Assembly: GCA_007376405.1 (NCBI GenBank)
Contig: VMGD01000002.1
Coordinates: 8,159-72,158 of the forward strand
DNA: 64,000 nt
Reading direction: 5' to 3'
DNA from: Microgenomates group bacterium Gr01-1014_7
Lineage (GTDB): Bacteria; Patescibacteriota; Microgenomatia; Daviesbacterales; UBA10151
This document shows, in pieces, positions 4,476-12,933 of this stretch (position 1 is the stretch's first letter; every line of letters starts with the position of its first letter). Position numbers and translations under genes: made by a program. Under the pieces are notes generated by a model. That model saw only the letters and a list, made by a program, of their open reading frames with translations, had not been told where the DNA came from and did no database searches.

Positions 4476-6041
4476 ATGGAACAAACTGCCTTTAACAGTA
4501 ATAATTCGCAAAAATTCTTTTTATATGCTCGCAAGTCTACAGATGTAGAAGATAAACAAATGCGGTCTATTCCGGATCAACTGTTAGAACTAAGGGAATA
4601 TGCCAAGCGTGAAGGATTATATATTGTTGAAGAGCTAACAGAGGCTAAAACTGCTAAGGCTCCGGGTAGAGTGGTTTTTAATAGTATGCTTTCTAGAATA
4701 GAGAATGGTGAAGCGGAAGGTATTGTAGCTTGGCATCCGGATAGACTTGCTCGTAACAGTATAGATGGTGGGAAAATTATTTACCTTCTTGACCTTGGGA
4801 AACTTAAAAACTTAAAGTTTCCCCAACATTGGTTTGAAAATACTCCTCAAGGTAAATTTTCCCTTAATATGGCTTTTTGCCAAAGTAAATACTTCGTGGA
4901 CTCGCTTTCAGAAAATACCAAAAGAGGAATCCGCCAAAAAGTTAAAAGGGGTGAAATGCCAGGACTTGCACCAGTAGGTTATTTAAACATAATGACTAAT
5001 AACAGGAAAATTATAGTCATTGATAAAAAGCGTGCTCTTATTATAAGACAAGCTTTTGAAATGTTTGCTACGGCTAAATATCGTATTCAAGATATTTGCA
5101 ACTTTCTGGCTGAAAATGGCATGGCAAAGGCCAGTGGTAAGCTTTGGAAGAGCGATCGGGTAAGTAAGCAGATACTTTCCAATCCTTTCTATTACGGCCA
5201 TTTTAAATATATGGGCGAGATCCACGAAGGGGTTCATCAGCCAATCATTACAAAGAAACTGTGGGACGCAGTCCAAATCGTGTGGAGGAAGCGAAGTCAT
5301 TCCTGGAAAGAGATGAGACCACAAAAACCTTTAACAGGACTTTTTCGTTGTGGTGAGTGTGGTATGATGATTACCGCCGAACTCCAAAAAGGCTACATAT
5401 ATTATCGTTGTACGAAAAAGTCTAAGGTAAGATCCTGTTCTCAGTTATATATTCGGGAAGAAGAGTTAGATCGACAATTATCAGATCAAATAGCCACAGT
5501 TTCTTTGAGGCAGGATTGGGCAGATAAAATGTTGGCTAAGTTATCGATAGAGGAAAAAAATGTAGCCCAATCCTGTGATATGTTTGTTGGAGAAAAGCAA
5601 GCAGAGATTAAATCTATCAATGAAAAACTCCAAAGACTCCTTGATTCTTATTTAGAGCAAGACATCGAGCGTGAGGATTACCTTGTTAAAAAAGCAGATT
5701 TGCTTGCTTTAAAGAAAAAATTAGAGGAACAAATTTTATCTTTCCAACAAACCAAAAATGCTTGGCTCGAACCAATGAAACAATGGATAGTGGAAGCCGC
5801 CGCGGCGGCTAATATCGCAAGAAGTAAAGACTTAAATGCAAAAAAGGTACTTGCTCAAAAAATCTTCGGCTCGAACCCCACACTAAAAGACAGAAAGGTA
5901 TATTGCAACGCTCTAAACATATGGTCCGCCCTACGGGCGGACCCGCCAACTCGGGACTCGGAGCCGACAGCGGGAATTGAACCCGCGACCCCGTTCTTAC
6001 CAAGAACGTGCTCTACCACTGAGCCATGTCGGCAGAAATGA
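4476..6041 (+). CDS. Large serine recombinase (resolvase/invertase-type N-terminal domain, recombinase domain, zinc ribbon and coiled coil)
   Basis: The N-terminus FLYARKSTDVEDKQ carries the catalytic Ser. A zinc-ribbon CGECG...YYRC and a long coiled coil follow. The last ~26 codons run antisense through tRNA-Thr, so the true stop may be functionally irrelevant. Confidence 0.85.
   Translation: MEQTAFNSNNSQKFFLYARKSTDVEDKQMRSIPDQLLELREYAKREGLYIVEELTEAKTAKAPGRVVFNSMLSRIENGEAEGIVAWHPDRLARNSIDGGKIIYLLDLGKLKNLKFPQHWFENTPQGKFSLNMAFCQSKYFVDSLSENTKRGIRQKVKRGEMPGLAPVGYLNIMTNNRKIIVIDKKRALIIRQAFEMFATAKYRIQDICNFLAENGMAKASGKLWKSDRVSKQILSNPFYYGHFKYMGEIHEGVHQPIITKKLWDAVQIVWRKRSHSWKEMRPQKPLTGLFRCGECGMMITAELQKGYIYYRCTKKSKVRSCSQLYIREEELDRQLSDQIATVSLRQDWADKMLAKLSIEEKNVAQSCDMFVGEKQAEIKSINEKLQRLLDSYLEQDIEREDYLVKKADLLALKKKLEEQILSFQQTKNAWLEPMKQWIVEAAAAANIARSKDLNAKKVLAQKIFGSNPTLKDRKVYCNALNIWSALRADPPTRDSEPTAGIEPATPFLPRTCSTTEPCRQK
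5962..6033 (-). tRNA. tRNA-Thr (anticodon GGU)
   Basis: The reverse complement folds as a canonical cloverleaf: acceptor GCCGACA/TGTCGGC, D-arm GCTC-AGTGGTA-GAGC, anticodon loop TTGGTAA, T-arm GCGGG-TTCAATT-CCCGC, discriminator T. No CCA is encoded. Confidence 0.75.
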
Positions 6042-6112
6042 GCCTCCTGGCAGAATCGGACTGCCGTCATATGTTTACAAAACATACGCACTAACCACTG
6101 TGCTAAGGAGGC
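6041..6112 (-). tRNA. tRNA-Thr (anticodon UGU)
   Basis: The reverse complement gives acceptor GCCTCCT/AGGAGGC, D-arm GCAC-AGTGGTTA-GTGC, anticodon stem TATGT/ACATA with loop TTTGTAA, and T-arm GGCAG-TCCGATT-CTGCC. The T-loop is atypical (C at position 55). Confidence 0.65.
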
Positions 6113-6169: not shown

Positions 6170-6406
6170 GTGACTCAATTATCAAACAAGTATCCTTTGG
6201 AAGAAAGAACAGCAAAATTTGGTGAAGATATTATTAAGTTTTGTAGAGTCTTAAAAGTAGATACAATATCCTTACCTCTTATAAGCCAACTTGTAAGGTC
6301 AGCAACTAGTATAGGAGCAAATTATATGGAAGCTAATGCAGCAAGTTCAAGAAATGACCTTGATATGCCAAAAGATTACTTCAACATTAAGAGGGAAATA
6401 GTTTAA
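6170..6406 (+). CDS. Four-helix-bundle protein (23S rRNA IVS protein/TIGR02436-like), apparently C-terminally truncated
   Basis: The motif SIGANYMEANAASSRNDL matches the family signature (S.I..NIAEG..R.S..DF). It is only 78 aa against ~115-125 for the family. Confidence 0.45.
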   Translation: MTQLSNKYPLEERTAKFGEDIIKFCRVLKVDTISLPLISQLVRSATSIGANYMEANAASSRNDLDMPKDYFNIKREIV

Positions 6407-6764
6407 TTACTCAGTAATTGATAACTGAGAACTTATTGAAAATTGAAAAATGTAAACTAAAAATTAAATAAGTACTCCCTACTATAGTCGTTAAGCCAAT
6501 TATTTTCCCCCTAAATTGAGGTGGGTGTCCTGGTCCGATAGAGATACTCTCATCGGACACTTCGAACTCCCTTAAAGTAACAAATATCGAAGAAAAAACT
6601 TTGGCTTTTAAACGTGCAAAGCAGGGATCAGGCAGAGCCTGGGTCCCTTAGGCCATCTACTAAATGTCCTTTAGGATAATTTAACAGTAGCACTAAAATA
6701 AATCTCTTGTCAAGGGGTTAAAACTTGACAAAAGATTATGTGTATGCTAATGTGTATGTGTATG

Positions 6765-7004
6765 TTAAACAGAAGAACAAATTTCCTTTTAAATAAGGAT
6801 GTATTGGATAAGTTGGTTAAACTTTCCCGGACTCGCAATATTTCTATGGCAGAGGTTGTTAGAAGAGCAGTAGAAAAAGAGTATGAGGAGGAAAAAGAGC
6901 TGGAAACAAGAAAGAAAGCAATAGATGCGACCCTAATGGGAAGATTAATGTCTAAAGGTAAAATTGATTACAAAGAGCTGATTAATTATGGCCGCAAATA
7001 TTAA
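6765..7004 (+). CDS. vapB: Ribbon-helix-helix (CopG/VapB-like) antitoxin
   Basis: It is a small RHH-like N-terminus. It overlaps the downstream PIN-domain gene by 17 nt. The start was chosen at MLNRRTN after the TGTGTATG microsatellite. Confidence 0.55.
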   Translation, partial: LNRRTNFLLNKDVLDKLVKLSRTRNISMAEVVRRAVEKEYEEEKELETRKKAIDATLMGRLMSKGKIDYKELINYGRKY

Positions 7005-7380
7005 AAAATACATTGTAGATGCTTCTTTTGTTCTTTCCTTTTTACTTCCCGATGAAAATCACCAAGAGGCAGATTTGTTTTTTAATCAATATAAAGCCGG
7101 CATCATTAATTTTTTATCTACACCGTTGTTGCCTTTTGAGGTGGTAAATGGATTAAAGTTAGCAGTTATTAGAAAAAGGATCAGTTCAAAATACGCAAAA
7201 GAACGAATGAAAGAATTTTTTAATTATCAAATCAGACTTGTGGGCACAGATTTTTTTGAAGTTTTTGACTTGGCCCAGAAGAATAATTTAACTGTTTATG
7301 ATGCATGCTATTTATATCTGTCGAGGATTAAAAAGGCCCAGCTTCTAACATCCGATGAAGCTCTCCAAAAATTAATTTAA
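6988..7380 (+). CDS. vapC: PIN-domain toxin VapC
   Basis: The N-terminal YIVDASFVL.. has the PIN acidic residue. The C-terminal LLTSDEAL matches the typical ..T.D pattern. Confidence 0.7.
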   Translation: MAANIKKYIVDASFVLSFLLPDENHQEADLFFNQYKAGIINFLSTPLLPFEVVNGLKLAVIRKRISSKYAKERMKEFFNYQIRLVGTDFFEVFDLAQKNNLTVYDACYLYLSRIKKAQLLTSDEALQKLI

Positions 7381-8015
7381 AATCCAAGCAGGCCGGAAAA
7401 TAGCCTTACAAAAAAGCTTAAGATCGTTTGCAGAAGAGAGCTTGAGCCAAAAGGAATTATCAGTAAAAGCATCAGAATTAAGAATCCATATGGTTCAATT
7501 CTCTGGTAGCTTTTAGCCATATTAAGGGGAAGTTGAGAAAGCAGTATTTTTGATCCGTCCAGGGGAGGAATGGGAAATAAATTAAATACTCCCAGAACCA
7601 GGTTAATTACCATGGTATAGCGCAAAAGGCTGCCTACTAATGCAGGAAAAACAAAAGGTATGGCATCAAGGAGATGATAAAGCAAGGCTGCAGCAATGGC
7701 CAGAGTGAAATTAGCCAGAATTCCGGCTGCAGAAACAAACAGTTCTCCCTTTCTGATTCTGGAAAAATTTAGCGGATTAACAGGCACCGGCTTGGCCCAG
7801 CCAAAAAGAATGGGGGAGCCGGTTAAAATTAACAGGCCCGGAAGTAAGATTGTGCCAAAAAGATCTATGTGAGGAATGGGGTTTAAGGTTAATCTGCCTG
7901 CATTTGCGGCGGTTCTGTCCCCAAATTTTAAGGCCACCAGCCCATGCATGACTTCATGGACTATGACTGAGAATAAAAGTATAACAATAGATAAGGCTAG
8001 AAATTCAGGGTTCAT
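7377..8015 (-). CDS. Peptidase M50 (site-2 protease family) membrane metalloprotease
   Basis: The motif HEVMHGLVA (HExxH) sits in TM helix 1. The protein has a multi-TM hydrophobic profile and a C-terminal LDG motif. Confidence 0.7.
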   Translation of the reverse strand: MNPEFLALSIVILLFSVIVHEVMHGLVALKFGDRTAANAGRLTLNPIPHIDLFGTILLPGLLILTGSPILFGWAKPVPVNPLNFSRIRKGELFVSAAGILANFTLAIAAALLYHLLDAIPFVFPALVGSLLRYTMVINLVLGVFNLFPIPPLDGSKILLSQLPLNMAKSYQRIEPYGFLILMLLLIIPFGSSSLLQTILSFFVRLFSGLLGF

Positions 8016-8033
8016 TATGTTATATTATCACAT

Positions 8034-8270
8034 ATGTTAGTTTGCAGTCGATGTGGTAAAGGTAAAAATATAATCGCCTATTCAAGGCACAAAAAGGGTT
8101 CCTCCGGTGCCGGAGGAGTATGGGCTTTGCGTGCCCCAATTCACAAAAGAGTCCAGCTTCCGAATCTGCATGCTTATATGGGCAAAAAATACTGCACCAA
8201 ATGTTTAAGGCTGGTAAAAACCCCTTTTCAAAAAGCTAAAGTAGAAGAGCGACCTCAAGCTCAAGTTTAA
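8034..8270 (+). CDS. rpmB: Ribosomal protein bL28-like zinc-ribbon protein
   Basis: The pattern CSRCGK...SRH...KRVQLPNLH resembles bL28 (C..GK..GN.SH..KR.FLPNL). Cys pairs lie at both ends, and there is an insertion relative to E. coli bL28. Confidence 0.45.
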   Translation: MLVCSRCGKGKNIIAYSRHKKGSSGAGGVWALRAPIHKRVQLPNLHAYMGKKYCTKCLRLVKTPFQKAKVEERPQAQV

Positions 8271-8282
8271 TTTGAAAAGATC

Positions 8283-10157
8283 ATGGCATCTTTAGAAATT
8301 TTAACAGCAGAACTCGAAGCACATTCCAGGGGTGGAGTCAACCCAAATCTTACTGTAGGAGCTCGTAACCGTTCACAAAGAAGAAGCATAAAAGACCCGT
8401 TTGCTCGGGAAGCAGAGTCCTGGCTTGCCAGGGGAAACTCACTTGCTGTTGTACTAAATCGAACTCGAAAGCTATTATATGAGAGTGTAATTTTCTTTGA
8501 GCGAGATATCACAAGAATGATTTATCAAGGCAGTCCATTTATAGGGGAATATTTAAGTGCAATACGCAGGCTTCCTGATTTTTTGGCAGAAGCTTCAATG
8601 GCTAATTTGCGCCTAAACTTTACAACTCCTGAAAGTCTGGCCTCAATTGAAACTCAAAACCTGTTTGAAAGATCGGTTGGTGGAATAACTCTTCTTGATA
8701 TTGAAAGGATGCAACTGCCACTTTCATCGGCAGATATAAGCGGAATTAATAGAATATTTTATCCGAGATTAATTGATAGAGTGATCCCTCATAAACTTAA
8801 TCCTTTTAAGGAGGCAGTTGATCATGGCTTGATTCGCCAAGCTGCCATTTTACTTGCTACCCAAAAAATGGCAAGACTTAATGAAAAAGTTAATATCCCT
8901 TCTAATGTACAATCGCTTTATTCCCGCCTGAGCGCTTATTTTGATTATTATACTCACCTGATGACAGATTTTTCTATGGATCAAGTAGAAGATTCAAATT
9001 TTTGTAATATTTTGCTTTGGGGAAGACCGGGACTGCCTCAGTTTTTAGGTTGCTATATCCCGGGACGTTTAGGGATAACCCCTGCCTCAGCCATAAAGCT
9101 TTTTTATGAAAGAGCTCAGAATTCTTACTTGCCTTTTCTTTATTGGGGATCTGATAGAGCTTTAAGAACTCCAATAGGAATTCTTACAAAAGGTGCAAGG
9201 GATGCTTATCCTGGGAACGGATTGCCTGCTGATTTGCAAAAATATTCACACTTCGATCCTCAAATGGACAAAAGTGCTTCTGAGTGGTTGCTTAAATTTT
9301 ATCAAGGGATTGCAAATGAAACGGCAGAAGAAACAGACAGAAAGTTTTTAGGATTAAGAGAGACTATTTTCCAGGATATCCAAAGCGCTCCATCAAAAAG
9401 ACAGGAGGTTACTTTACCGCAAGAGCATACCATAAGAAGGATTGTCTTAGCAAGACAATATCGCCAAACTTTAATGATAATTTTGCAATTTGCAGATAAC
9501 CAAACTCATCTGACTTTAGAACATGCCATGAATTCACCGGATGGTATTGATAAAGAAGATCATGTTTATGGATGGCCGAGAGAGTTGATCAGAGAAAACC
9601 CTCAACTTACCAGTGTAATAGCTACGGATTTATTAGCCAAAATTGTTCAAGATACTTTAAGAAGGCATCCGGAGCAAGAAGTTAAACCCCGCAGGGTTTT
9701 TCCCGGCGAAGCTACTCTTCCTTATTACATACCAAGTTTTCCCCAAGAGTCGGAGGAGATTCGTTTGCCTGTGCTAACAGGGAAAGGAAGACGACACTTT
9801 CCTAAAATATTAACTCCAATTCAACAAGTCCTTGCAGGAGAACCTAATCCACCAGCCCAAAGAGAAAGATTATTAAGAAAGTTTAGGGTAGATTATTCAA
9901 GGACTCAGATTGAGGAGTTTTTACCCAGGAATGCCCCTCAGAATACAATTGATCAACTTATGAAAGCAATTAGGTCGTTTGAATATGGGAGAGGAAACTT
10001 TAAAAGATTCAAAGAAGATCGTACGGAGGGAGAAAGTTTGTGGGAACTTCGAACAGGAGACTATAGACTTCTTTTAAAACATAAAGAGGGTCAGATTTTT
10101 TCTCTAGAGAAAGTAGGTCATAGAAGGGAAATATTTAGTCAACGGAGGAGAGGCTAA
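8283..10157 (+). CDS. Large hypothetical protein with a C-terminal RelE/ParE-like toxin fold
   Basis: The C-terminal ~90 aa, ...GESLWELRTGDYRLLLKHKEGQIFSLEKVGHRREIF, match the RelE/ParE signature (LWELR.GdYRiiY...il.IgHRkdiY). The N-terminal ~530 aa have no recognizable family. Confidence 0.5.
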   Translation: MASLEILTAELEAHSRGGVNPNLTVGARNRSQRRSIKDPFAREAESWLARGNSLAVVLNRTRKLLYESVIFFERDITRMIYQGSPFIGEYLSAIRRLPDFLAEASMANLRLNFTTPESLASIETQNLFERSVGGITLLDIERMQLPLSSADISGINRIFYPRLIDRVIPHKLNPFKEAVDHGLIRQAAILLATQKMARLNEKVNIPSNVQSLYSRLSAYFDYYTHLMTDFSMDQVEDSNFCNILLWGRPGLPQFLGCYIPGRLGITPASAIKLFYERAQNSYLPFLYWGSDRALRTPIGILTKGARDAYPGNGLPADLQKYSHFDPQMDKSASEWLLKFYQGIANETAEETDRKFLGLRETIFQDIQSAPSKRQEVTLPQEHTIRRIVLARQYRQTLMIILQFADNQTHLTLEHAMNSPDGIDKEDHVYGWPRELIRENPQLTSVIATDLLAKIVQDTLRRHPEQEVKPRRVFPGEATLPYYIPSFPQESEEIRLPVLTGKGRRHFPKILTPIQQVLAGEPNPPAQRERLLRKFRVDYSRTQIEEFLPRNAPQNTIDQLMKAIRSFEYGRGNFKRFKEDRTEGESLWELRTGDYRLLLKHKEGQIFSLEKVGHRREIFSQRRRG

Positions 10158-10178
10158 TTATATAAAAATTTGGGAAAA

Positions 10179-10568
10179 TCAGGGTTTAAATCTTTTAATT
10201 TCTTTAATTTTATCCAAGCCTTTATCAAAAGAATAAATAGCTTCAAGCTTTTCCGATTCGCAATATGCTGCTAAATATGCGTCAATAAAGTCAATATTAA
10301 AATTCCGGTAAAAATATAATGTTCTAATAAATAAACTTTTATTTGAGTAAATAGAATTTAGATTTAAGAGATTGTAAATTTTTTCTATTATGTCTTCCCT
10401 GTTGAATTTATAAAAAGATATTAGAACCCAAACTACCTCGGCAATTATCATATCTGATAGGTATAAATTCTCTTCTGAATTTTCTAAAATTGATTTAGCT
10501 TTCTGAAATTGTTTTACATCATCCTTAAGTAAAAAACGCAGTATTAGATTAGCATCAAGAAGTTTCAT
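10179..10568 (-). CDS. vapC: PIN-domain toxin VapC
   Basis: It begins MKLLDANLIL and has a C-terminal FDKG motif. It overlaps the upstream antitoxin by 4 nt. Confidence 0.7.
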   Translation of the reverse strand: MKLLDANLILRFLLKDDVKQFQKAKSILENSEENLYLSDMIIAEVVWVLISFYKFNREDIIEKIYNLLNLNSIYSNKSLFIRTLYFYRNFNIDFIDAYLAAYCESEKLEAIYSFDKGLDKIKEIKRFKP

Positions 10569-10849
10569 TTAAAATTGGGTCTATATTTTTTAGGTAAGGT
10601 TTTAATATATTCGTCTGCTAACATTTTGCCAACTGCTTCAAAAGCTTTTTTCCTATCCCATTTAATATTAGTTTTTAAAGAGCCGGCTAATTCATTTATC
10701 AGCTGACTATTAGTTTTAATTACCAATTGACCATTTATATCTTCAAAAATAATTTTATCACCTGGCTTAATTCCAAATTTTTCTCTCATTTGGTTGGGAA
10801 TAGTGGCCTGACCTTTAGTAGTAACAGTGGAGCTGTACGTATTAAACAT
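10565..10849 (-). CDS. AbrB/MazE/SpoVT-type antitoxin
   Basis: It has a swapped-hairpin motif, GQATIPNQMREKFGIKPGDKI. It is the first gene of an operon with the PIN gene, and a TTGACA-17-TATAGT promoter lies upstream on the minus strand. Confidence 0.65.
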   Translation of the reverse strand: MFNTYSSTVTTKGQATIPNQMREKFGIKPGDKIIFEDINGQLVIKTNSQLINELAGSLKTNIKWDRKKAFEAVGKMLADEYIKTLPKKYRPNFK

Positions 10850-10949
10850 AGTATTACTACTATACCATAAGTATTACTTTTTGTCAAGGGTAATACAGGG
10901 CAAAAATTTGACATTTGCCTTTTTTTTTTGCTATAAATGAAGAGAAATT

Positions 10950-11198
10950 TTGGGAGGTGACATTAAGTTTATGGGGGAAAAAGATAAGAAATATTATCCG
11001 AGTGAACCTTATACTGGTTTAAAGCAAAAGGCAATCAGAGATACGTATAGAGATTTATCACCGGACGAAAAAGTACTGGTGGATAGGTTACTTTATAGAG
11101 TGTTGGACTTACATATAAGAAACATGGGGATTGTGTCCGCGCTTGAGATTGTTGGGTCGATTGCTATTACGCTGGTAGAAAATCCTCAGTTAAAGTAA
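10950..11198 (+). CDS. Hypothetical small protein
   Basis: ORF only; no recognizable motifs. Confidence 0.3.
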   Translation: MGGDIKFMGEKDKKYYPSEPYTGLKQKAIRDTYRDLSPDEKVLVDRLLYRVLDLHIRNMGIVSALEIVGSIAITLVENPQLK

Positions 11199-12654: not shown

Positions 12655-12933
12655 TTAACCCTTCAGCTGCTTAAGTCTCCACATGAAGACTCGGGCTTTG
12701 TTTTTGGCTCCATAATAACCTTTGGTAAAATTTAGCACTTCTTCCAGGATTTTTCTGTCTACTTCTTTGGCCAGTTTTATATACAGGGAATAATGTTTGG
12801 TATCAGCCAGGCTTTCAGCCAGATACACCCCATATTCCTGAAATTCATAAGCAATATTTTTGGGCCTGTCTTTAAATCTGGTTTCAGCAATAGCTGTTTT
12901 AATTGACTTCATCAAGTTGCGCCTTTGCTTCAA
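12655..12933 (-). CDS. Hypothetical small protein
   Basis: ORF only. Confidence 0.3.
   Translation of the reverse strand: MKQRRNLMKSIKTAIAETRFKDRPKNIAYEFQEYGVYLAESLADTKHYSLYIKLAKEVDRKILEEVLNFTKGYYGAKNKARVFMWRLKQLKG

Follow-up and report, generated by a model that had tools for sequence, protein, structure and literature searches.

The gene at positions 8283-10157 (forward strand) of a 64,000-nucleotide stretch of Microgenomates group bacterium Gr01-1014_7, a groundwater bacterium of the candidate phyla radiation (contig VMGD01000002.1, positions 8,159 to 72,158; the whole stretch is called the window below) encodes a 624-residue protein that ends in a genuine RelE/ParE-superfamily domain (residues ~533-624). 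A disordered linker joins this domain to an N-terminal domain of ~430 residues, whose predicted fold is without a relative in the PDB. The identical database protein is listed as 'hypothetical protein G01um10147_146', and the G+C content of the genome is ~38%. As the best explanation of the data we tentatively propose, at somewhat less than an even chance, that the fusion protein is a single-chain, cis-regulated, antitoxin-less RelE-type translation toxin and that its gene is an accessory conflict element. The parts of the protein were delimited with an AlphaFold2 (AF2) model computed from a 110-sequence alignment of its relatives (predicted local distance difference test, pLDDT, 88.7; predicted template modelling score, pTM, 0.88); a model from a five-sequence alignment (pLDDT 45) was unusable. 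Positions are those of the window.

8283-10157, + strand: whole gene of the 624-aa fusion protein (open reading frame (ORF) list, ATG start; matched end to end by nearly all of the family)
8283-8396, + strand: disordered basic N-terminal tail, residues 1-38 (pLDDT 53-76; median pI of the tail 10.4)
8367-8384, + strand: conserved tail motif N29-R30-x-x-R33-R34 (NRxxRR; N29 62%, R30 80%, R33 76%, R34 83%)
8397-9677, + strand: N-terminal globular domain, residues 39-465, ~430 aa (AF2 pLDDT mostly 93-98)
9678-9878, + strand: disordered basic linker, residues 466-532, ~65 residues (pLDDT 47-63, rising to 80-92 at 511-530)
9813-9854, + strand: short conserved linker helix 'TPI..vL..P..P', T511-P524, directly before the toxin-like domain (seen across family members)
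9879-10154, + strand: RelE/ParE-superfamily domain, residues 533-624 (sequence and predicted structure)

The assignment of the C-terminal domain is solid because evidence at the level of the whole family is joined by the predicted structure; matches of the single protein are sub-threshold. Alone, the protein matches the Pfam family ParE_toxin (PF05016) with its last 99 residues at E 0.003 and 18.5 bits (gathering cutoff 23), the PHROG family 'RelE-like toxin' at E 0.0015 and Thermus RelE (2khe) at E 0.047, and an NCBIfam scan returned nothing. When 56 family C-termini were scanned singly, PF05016 was matched by 20 (E<=0.1; best E 4.3e-6) and ParE_like by two, with no other Pfam family recurrent. 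The family profile aligns with E. coli RelE over 79 columns (RelE residues 5-90; hhalign E 8.7e-5, 60% probability), and its best PDB sequence matches are Rv2866/RelG, 2khe, RelE3, RelE1 and an archaeal RelE. The C-terminal consensus of the family reads FExG....K.L....G....R.G.YRIIL...G...Y.....G.R...Y.

The model agrees with these alignments. Residues 533-624 form, in order, a strand, two helices, four strands and a C-terminal helix (β 535-537, α 540-546, α 553-567, β 573-575, β 586-591, β 594-600, β 605-613, α 614-623), which is the compact α/β fold of RelE/ParE proteins. The top Foldseek match is RelE3 (probability 1.00, TM 0.61) and the second-best structural match M. tuberculosis RelE1. 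The domain is basic (median pI 9.7). RelE-type and ParE-type are not cleanly separable on these data. A sequence-only reading of the gene had placed a RelE/ParE-type toxin domain at the C-terminus, from the motif ESLWELRTGDYRLLLKHKEGQIFSLEKVGHRREIF (residues 584-618, nt 10032-10136), behind ~530 unannotatable residues, and had named profile searches and structure comparison as checks; both the domain and the fusion are borne out, the former by profile matches at family level as well as by structure.

The fusion is a fixed property of a sizeable family. A word-indexed homologue search yielded four relatives, to which a second query with the 110-sequence alignment added none; three of the four are full-length (622-632 aa, 33-73% identity) and align unbroken through the C-terminus. 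The family was revealed by an exhaustive hmmsearch with the alignment of these relatives against 1.84 billion representatives, which returned 142 proteins at E<=1e-3 (clusters at 50% identity); E<=1e-30 was reached by 107. With few exceptions the 142 proteins have 560-630 aa and align to profile positions ~20-607, and the short matches look like fragments of the same fusion architecture. Most members come from Candidatus Daviesbacteria/Microgenomates. Database names are 'hypothetical' throughout and no curated model covers the family, which appears undescribed in its architecture, N-terminal fold, size and distribution among bacteria of the candidate phyla radiation (CPR). RelE-fold domains fused to other domains are already known, so the kind itself is not new.

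No Pfam, NCBIfam, PADLOC or PHROG family and no PDB sequence matched the N-terminal 530 residues, nor did the model give a credible structure match for them in the PDB or BFVD; in a viral fold library only the C-terminal domain was matched. Residues 39-465 are predicted to be mainly helical, with a four- to five-stranded sheet at 374-429, and their most conserved motif is PARLGITPSSAxKL (residues 260-273). Profile scans gave no recognisable catalytic signature in this domain. In the linker, P484 is almost invariant (95%) and K501, R503 and R504 form a basic patch. The C-terminal domain seems, in the model, to be placed against the N-terminal domain, because a pTM of 0.88 is too high for a free 92-residue domain given ~90 low-confidence residues.

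Residues of the putative active site were located by the hhalign register against E. coli RelE, and their frequencies were counted over 97 family members.

10050-10136, + strand: putative active-site positions R590 (10050-10052), R595 (10065-10067), R614 (10122-10124) and F618 (10134-10136)

R595 corresponds to RelE R61 and is Arg in 96 of the 97 members; R614 corresponds to R81 (Arg in 89, Lys in seven more). F618 takes the place of Y87, a position occupied by Tyr in 61 members and by Phe in 21 (Tyr or Phe in 82/97), and R590 that of R56 (Arg or Lys in 91/97). R61, R81 and Y87 are the critical residues of E. coli RelE (Neubauer et al. 2009, PMC2807027), in which the Y87F exchange, with loss of the Tyr hydroxyl, is tolerated while R81 is kept (PMC2807027). 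Phe618 alone is therefore no argument for inactivity. The question raised by the sequence-only reading, whether the RelE catalytic residues are retained, thus has a divided answer: the equivalents of R61, R81 and Y87 (the last as Phe618 here) are kept, those of K52 and K54 are not.

We propose the following mechanism. The N-terminal domain, possibly together with the linker helix, would inhibit the RelE-like domain in cis and thereby stand in for an antitoxin. On sensing a trigger, the N-terminal domain would release or expose the RelE-like domain, which might then act on ribosome-bound RNA, either on A-site mRNA, the target of E. coli RelE (PMC2807027), or on 16S rRNA, the target of M. tuberculosis RelE1 (PMC12620021). 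Attack on ribosome-bound RNA would lead to translation arrest. The gene would accordingly serve as an accessory conflict-type element, in defence, abortive infection or addiction, and not as a housekeeping gene.

The strongest alternative, which we nevertheless consider rather unlikely, is that the C-terminal domain is an inert protein- or RNA-binding module, or a gyrase poison of the ParE type, and that the real activity resides in the N-terminal domain. It has to account for the conservation, at 85-99%, of the three residues most critical in RelE catalysis and for a domain that is basic, as in RNA-binding RelE proteins. The top structural and PDB-sequence matches are RelE-type RNases, and the N-terminal domain, to which this explanation would assign the activity, offers no recognisable catalytic signature. 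Were the C-terminal domain catalytically inert, the family would be a case in which a toxin fold had been domesticated for binding.

The genes around the fusion gene bear on whether it has a partner and whether it is a housekeeping gene. Locus scans relied on a conserved peptide pattern; with a 22-sequence alignment they yielded four genome, three metagenome and no viral loci. Directly upstream in the window lies a small gene in the same orientation.

8034-8270, + strand: bL28-like gene, encoding a 78-aa CxxC...CxxC protein, co-oriented and 12 nt upstream of the fusion gene (PDB matches, conservation across loci)
7998-8026, + strand: promoter-like site upstream of the bL28-like gene (consensus scan alone; counts no higher than shuffle expectation)

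In the PDB, the bL28-like protein matches nothing but Deinococcus-type ribosomal protein bL28 (E 0.05-0.1), and a member is annotated as 'ribosomal protein L28' in one JGI record. The protein is 69-92% identical across loci and was found in the window and in loci L001-L005, L008 and L012-L018; most named members are from Candidatus Daviesbacteria. CxxC...CxxC proteins of this kind (67-91 aa) are widespread in Candidatus Daviesbacteria, with at least 396 clusters, and have no Pfam or NCBIfam match. The protein is probably a divergent Zn-binding bL28 missed by current models. We rejected it as an antitoxin because it is far more conserved than the fusion gene, has PDB matches to bL28 only and also occurs alone.

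In about eight of 15 distinct loci, the family gene is directly preceded by the bL28-like gene in the same orientation, with a gap of 12 nt or an overlap. The order M50 protease (-), bL28-like gene, fusion gene, ..., fmt (-), def (-) recurs in L001, L003, L004 (a complete Daviesbacteria chromosome), L005 and L012/L013/L018, and in L008 two regulator genes stand between the bL28-like and the family gene. Other members occupy unrelated contexts, after thyA-folA-glyA, after a pilin-like gene or near rpsU-ybeY-proS. Apart from the bL28-like gene no neighbour recurs among the ~15 distinct loci, and no cognate antitoxin or other conserved partner was found in them; the ORFs downstream share no homology between loci and include no conserved immunity gene, and no cas genes were present among the called neighbours.

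We first favoured, for the tight linkage to bL28, the idea that the fusion protein is a domesticated housekeeping ribosome factor, co-expressed with bL28 and docking its RelE-like domain in the A site for quality control or rescue. Besides the recurrent upstream position of the bL28-like gene, this idea is supported by the translation-related neighbours (fmt and def here; rpsU, ybeY and proS elsewhere) and by the same chromosomal position in several genomes. A consensus scan, whose counts are no higher than shuffle expectation, found no + strand terminator-like site between the bL28-like and the fusion gene, so that the two may form one transcription unit. To avoid ascertainment bias, four long contigs (L014-L017) were sampled via the bL28-like gene and not via the fusion gene. 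In all four, the fusion gene is absent between the bL28-like gene and fmt, with no match to the family hidden Markov model in any frame. The contents of this slot are as follows, with positions given in each contig.

Window, 8271-11189: fusion gene and VapBC
L014, 4752-4755: empty
L015, 4768-5178: unrelated 136-aa ORF
L016, 4975-6558: unrelated 527-aa acidic protein
L017, 4806-6458: protein resembling glycoside hydrolase family 5 (GH5-mannosidase-like)

Elsewhere the RelE-fusion gene occupies the slot, in some cases together with VapBC and sigma-domain genes. The position between the bL28-like gene and fmt is thus a variable cargo slot, and the linkage to bL28 is positional, since the slot lacks the fusion gene in four sampled relatives. 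The housekeeping idea was demoted on this ground and we now regard it as improbable. The occurrence of the gene in unrelated contexts, its much faster divergence than that of its neighbours (see below) and one copy with an in-frame stop also speak against it. That copy, in L007, is interrupted by an in-frame TAG (473-475), which leaves two ORFs in the same frame (104-472 and 476-1969); the stop marks a pseudogene or else stems from a sequencing error. Insertion signatures were sought around the window gene (direct or inverted repeats, junction alignment), and the only repeats were at chance level.

The fusion gene is far more divergent than its neighbours across the syntenic loci. Identity to the window copy is 32-35% for the fusion protein, as against 65-84% for the M50 protease, 69-81% for the bL28-like protein, 57-64% for def and 44-69% for fmt. 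In comparison with the closest relative (L002), the ratio of non-synonymous to synonymous divergence (dN/dS) is 0.53 for the fusion gene and 0.08 for the bL28-like gene. Synonymous divergence (pS) within this pair (window 8283-10154 versus L002 4077-5942) is mosaic: 0.07-0.25 over codons 1-545, 0.53 in the RelE-like domain and ~0.51-0.52 in the flanking M50 and bL28-like genes. In the linker, non-synonymous divergence (pN) exceeds pS. The mosaic pattern points to recombination or transfer and to a breakpoint close to the boundary of the toxin domain.

The C-terminal part is not the same in all members. Eleven of the 110 full-length proteins (P0036, P0057, P0089, P0091, P0095, P0102, P0105, P0117, P0125, P0127 and P0130; locus L008, 5001-7001; alignment A6) combine the common N-terminal scaffold with another, longer C-terminal module, which has the consensus ...NDxRL..DI.L.L..L.EDP.GPGTYKI...LRSFRGD.R...LR.VYY.D....V.I..I..H..FD..F. 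By eye this module appears RelE/HigB-like, but hhalign gave E 0.31 against the main type (alignment A5), HigB was matched at no better than E 0.7, there is no Pfam match, and a RelE likeness could not be demonstrated.

Such a module exchange would be expected if the protein were an exported effector like the polymorphic toxins, with an N-terminal delivery scaffold, an exchangeable RelE-fold toxin and a downstream immunity gene; the closest pair's abrupt shift in synonymous divergence near the start of the C-terminal domain, suggestive of modular recombination, and the unrelated small or medium-sized ORFs downstream in several loci point the same way. We nevertheless think this very unlikely. 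No signal peptide, transmembrane segment or known secretion/trafficking domain was found, and the N-terminus is a basic disordered tail. The downstream ORFs are unrelated to one another and in several loci the next gene is the convergent housekeeping gene fmt; moreover, the family has two C-terminal types and no more, compared with many in polymorphic toxins. That the fusion is an artefact of a frameshift or assembly error merging a standalone toxin with an upstream gene can be dismissed, for the protein's own sub-threshold Pfam match is all that might be held against the fusion (nothing was found for an artefact), whereas the same uninterrupted ~600-aa architecture recurs in the 142 representatives from many independent assemblies, with alignments continuous through the linker and no standalone close homologue of either half.

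Returning to the proposal of a cis-regulated toxin, we note that several points weigh against it. The equivalents of RelE K52 and K54 (a gap and E588) show no conservation in the family, and the clade of the window protein has Phe instead of Tyr at 618. Docking of the C-terminal domain and burial of its active face are deduced from the pTM alone, the accessory status from four sampled loci and the mosaic dN/dS pattern from a single sequence pair. PADLOC-DB v2 gave no match for the window protein and a chance-level match (E 0.028) for P0004, and no family members were found on phage genomes or viral contigs.

The minority C-terminal module, the L007 stop and the clustering of toxin-antitoxin (TA) and helicase-sigma genes fit a conflict-type element. 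As to the last of these, the surroundings of the slot are rich in TA modules (VapBC, HicA) and in helicase/sigma fusion genes. Large proteins with sigma-70 region 4 adjoin the family gene in three loci (L001 4205-5902, L002 305-2707 and L008 3932-4957) and include an 800-aa ResIII/DEAD helicase-Sigma70_r4 fusion and a 565-aa protein whose best NCBIfam match, far below cutoff, is the anti-phage-associated sigma factor MzaA. Such proteins may point to a slot that collects defence-like genes.

The sequence-only reading had offered three interpretations of the fusion, as a toxin recruited as an effector or nuclease module, a fused antitoxin-toxin or a polymorphic-toxin-like protein. The best fit is a toxin recruited as an effector or nuclease module and controlled by another domain, in effect a fused regulator-toxin, and the third interpretation is the least supported, the missing secretion/trafficking domain and conserved downstream immunity gene outweighing the existence of the minority C-terminal module. 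Its expectation that homologues would settle the matter was justified: the same fusion is present in 142 representatives, and the uninterrupted orthologues rule out a frameshift or annotation error. Beyond what it had foreseen are the size of the family (142 clusters) and the accessory, fast-evolving character of a gene in a variable slot.

We speculate further that the family is a CPR-specific single-chain switch for immunity or abortive infection, in which the N-terminal domain senses a phage or host cue and unleashes the tethered RelE-type nuclease on the ribosome; this more specific version is possible but, in our view, doubtful. If true, it would constitute a new class of sensor for RelE effectors, after CARF in Cami1, and one of the earliest lineage-specific defence systems to be described in Microgenomates. 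Its setting is the CPR bacteria, a group that is difficult to culture and about whose defence and conflict systems little is known. The family also lends itself to the question of what silences a RelE domain that lacks an antitoxin.

Two VapBC pairs flank the block of M50, bL28-like and fusion genes in the window; they are present in L001 and absent from L003, L004 and L005.

6738-7380, + strand: VapBC pair of a ribbon-helix-helix (RHH) protein and a PIN protein (RHH antitoxin-like ORF 6738-7004)
10179-10849, - strand: VapBC pair of a MazE/AbrB protein and a PIN protein (MazE/AbrB-type ORF 10565-10849)

Both antitoxins were considered as partners of the fusion protein and rejected, each being paired with its own PIN toxin and not syntenic elsewhere. 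The earlier statement that no antitoxin-like ORF is adjacent to the fusion gene consequently needs qualification: MazE/AbrB and RHH ORFs do lie nearby, but both belong to PIN toxins and neither is cognate.

Further upstream, a large serine recombinase (Resolvase + Recombinase + Zn_ribbon_recom; 4476-6041, + strand) reads into two tRNA genes on the opposite strand.

5960-6033 and 6040-6112, - strand: tRNA-Thr genes GGT and TGT, adjacent and overlapped by the recombinase ORF

An integrated element may have its edge at this overlap. In L014, a similar recombinase lies upstream of M50. A 78-aa ORF at 6170-6406 (+ strand) matches the first half of the model for the 23S rRNA-intervening-sequence protein (PF05635) at 25 bits (cutoff 33.8) and is probably a truncated copy. 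On the other side, a 92-aa ORF at 12655-12933 (- strand), between def and a Wzy_C/O-antigen-ligase-like gene, encodes a small conserved protein, 71-80% identical across the syntenic loci, that has no Pfam match.

RelE/ParE toxins serve as the standard example of toxin-antitoxin modules made of two genes. The toxins of canonical type II TA systems (RelBE, ParDE, HigBA) are standalone proteins of ~85-110 aa with an adjacent, co-transcribed antitoxin gene; here the toxin-like domain is the C-terminal 15% of 624 aa and no RelB/ParD-type antitoxin gene was found in ~15 loci. Within the superfamily, the domain resembles E. coli RelE, T. thermophilus RelE (2khe), M. tuberculosis RelE1/RelG, HigB, YoeB, YafQ and ParE. 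In comparison with E. coli RelE, the family conserves the equivalents of R61, R81 and Y87 but not those of K52 and K54.

Large proteins that end in a small RelE-related fold are also known among polymorphic toxins, for which Zhang, Aravind and colleagues reportedly described C-terminal RNase domains of the BECR fold (Barnase-EndoU-ColicinE5/D-RelE) in 2012. The present family shares this layout, with some evidence of C-terminal module exchange. Unlike these toxins, it has no secretion/trafficking domains, repeats, pre-toxin domains or conserved immunity gene, and its C-terminal types number two.

The closest parallels are single-polypeptide sensor-toxins (Cami1 and, by analogy, CapRel), exceptions to the two-gene arrangement that turned out to be immune effectors. 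CapRel, which Zhang and colleagues are said to have presented in Nature in 2022, is reportedly a fused toxin-antitoxin defence protein in which one domain both autoinhibits a translation-targeting toxin and acts as the sensor. The fusion protein would follow the same single-polypeptide logic if cis-inhibition is as we suggest, and its gene is likewise accessory and fast-evolving. It differs in having a toxin of the RelE-type fold, whereas that of CapRel is a RelA/SpoT-like tRNA pyrophosphokinase, in the C-terminal position of this toxin and in a much larger regulatory part. Cami1 is a CARF-RelE fusion that acts as an ancillary effector of type III CRISPR systems. In contrast to Cami1, the fusion protein has neither CARF nor any other Pfam match in its N-terminal 530 residues, and no cas neighbours were called. 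If our proposal is correct, the family would therefore add a second, unrelated and structurally novel sensor architecture for a RelE-type effector.

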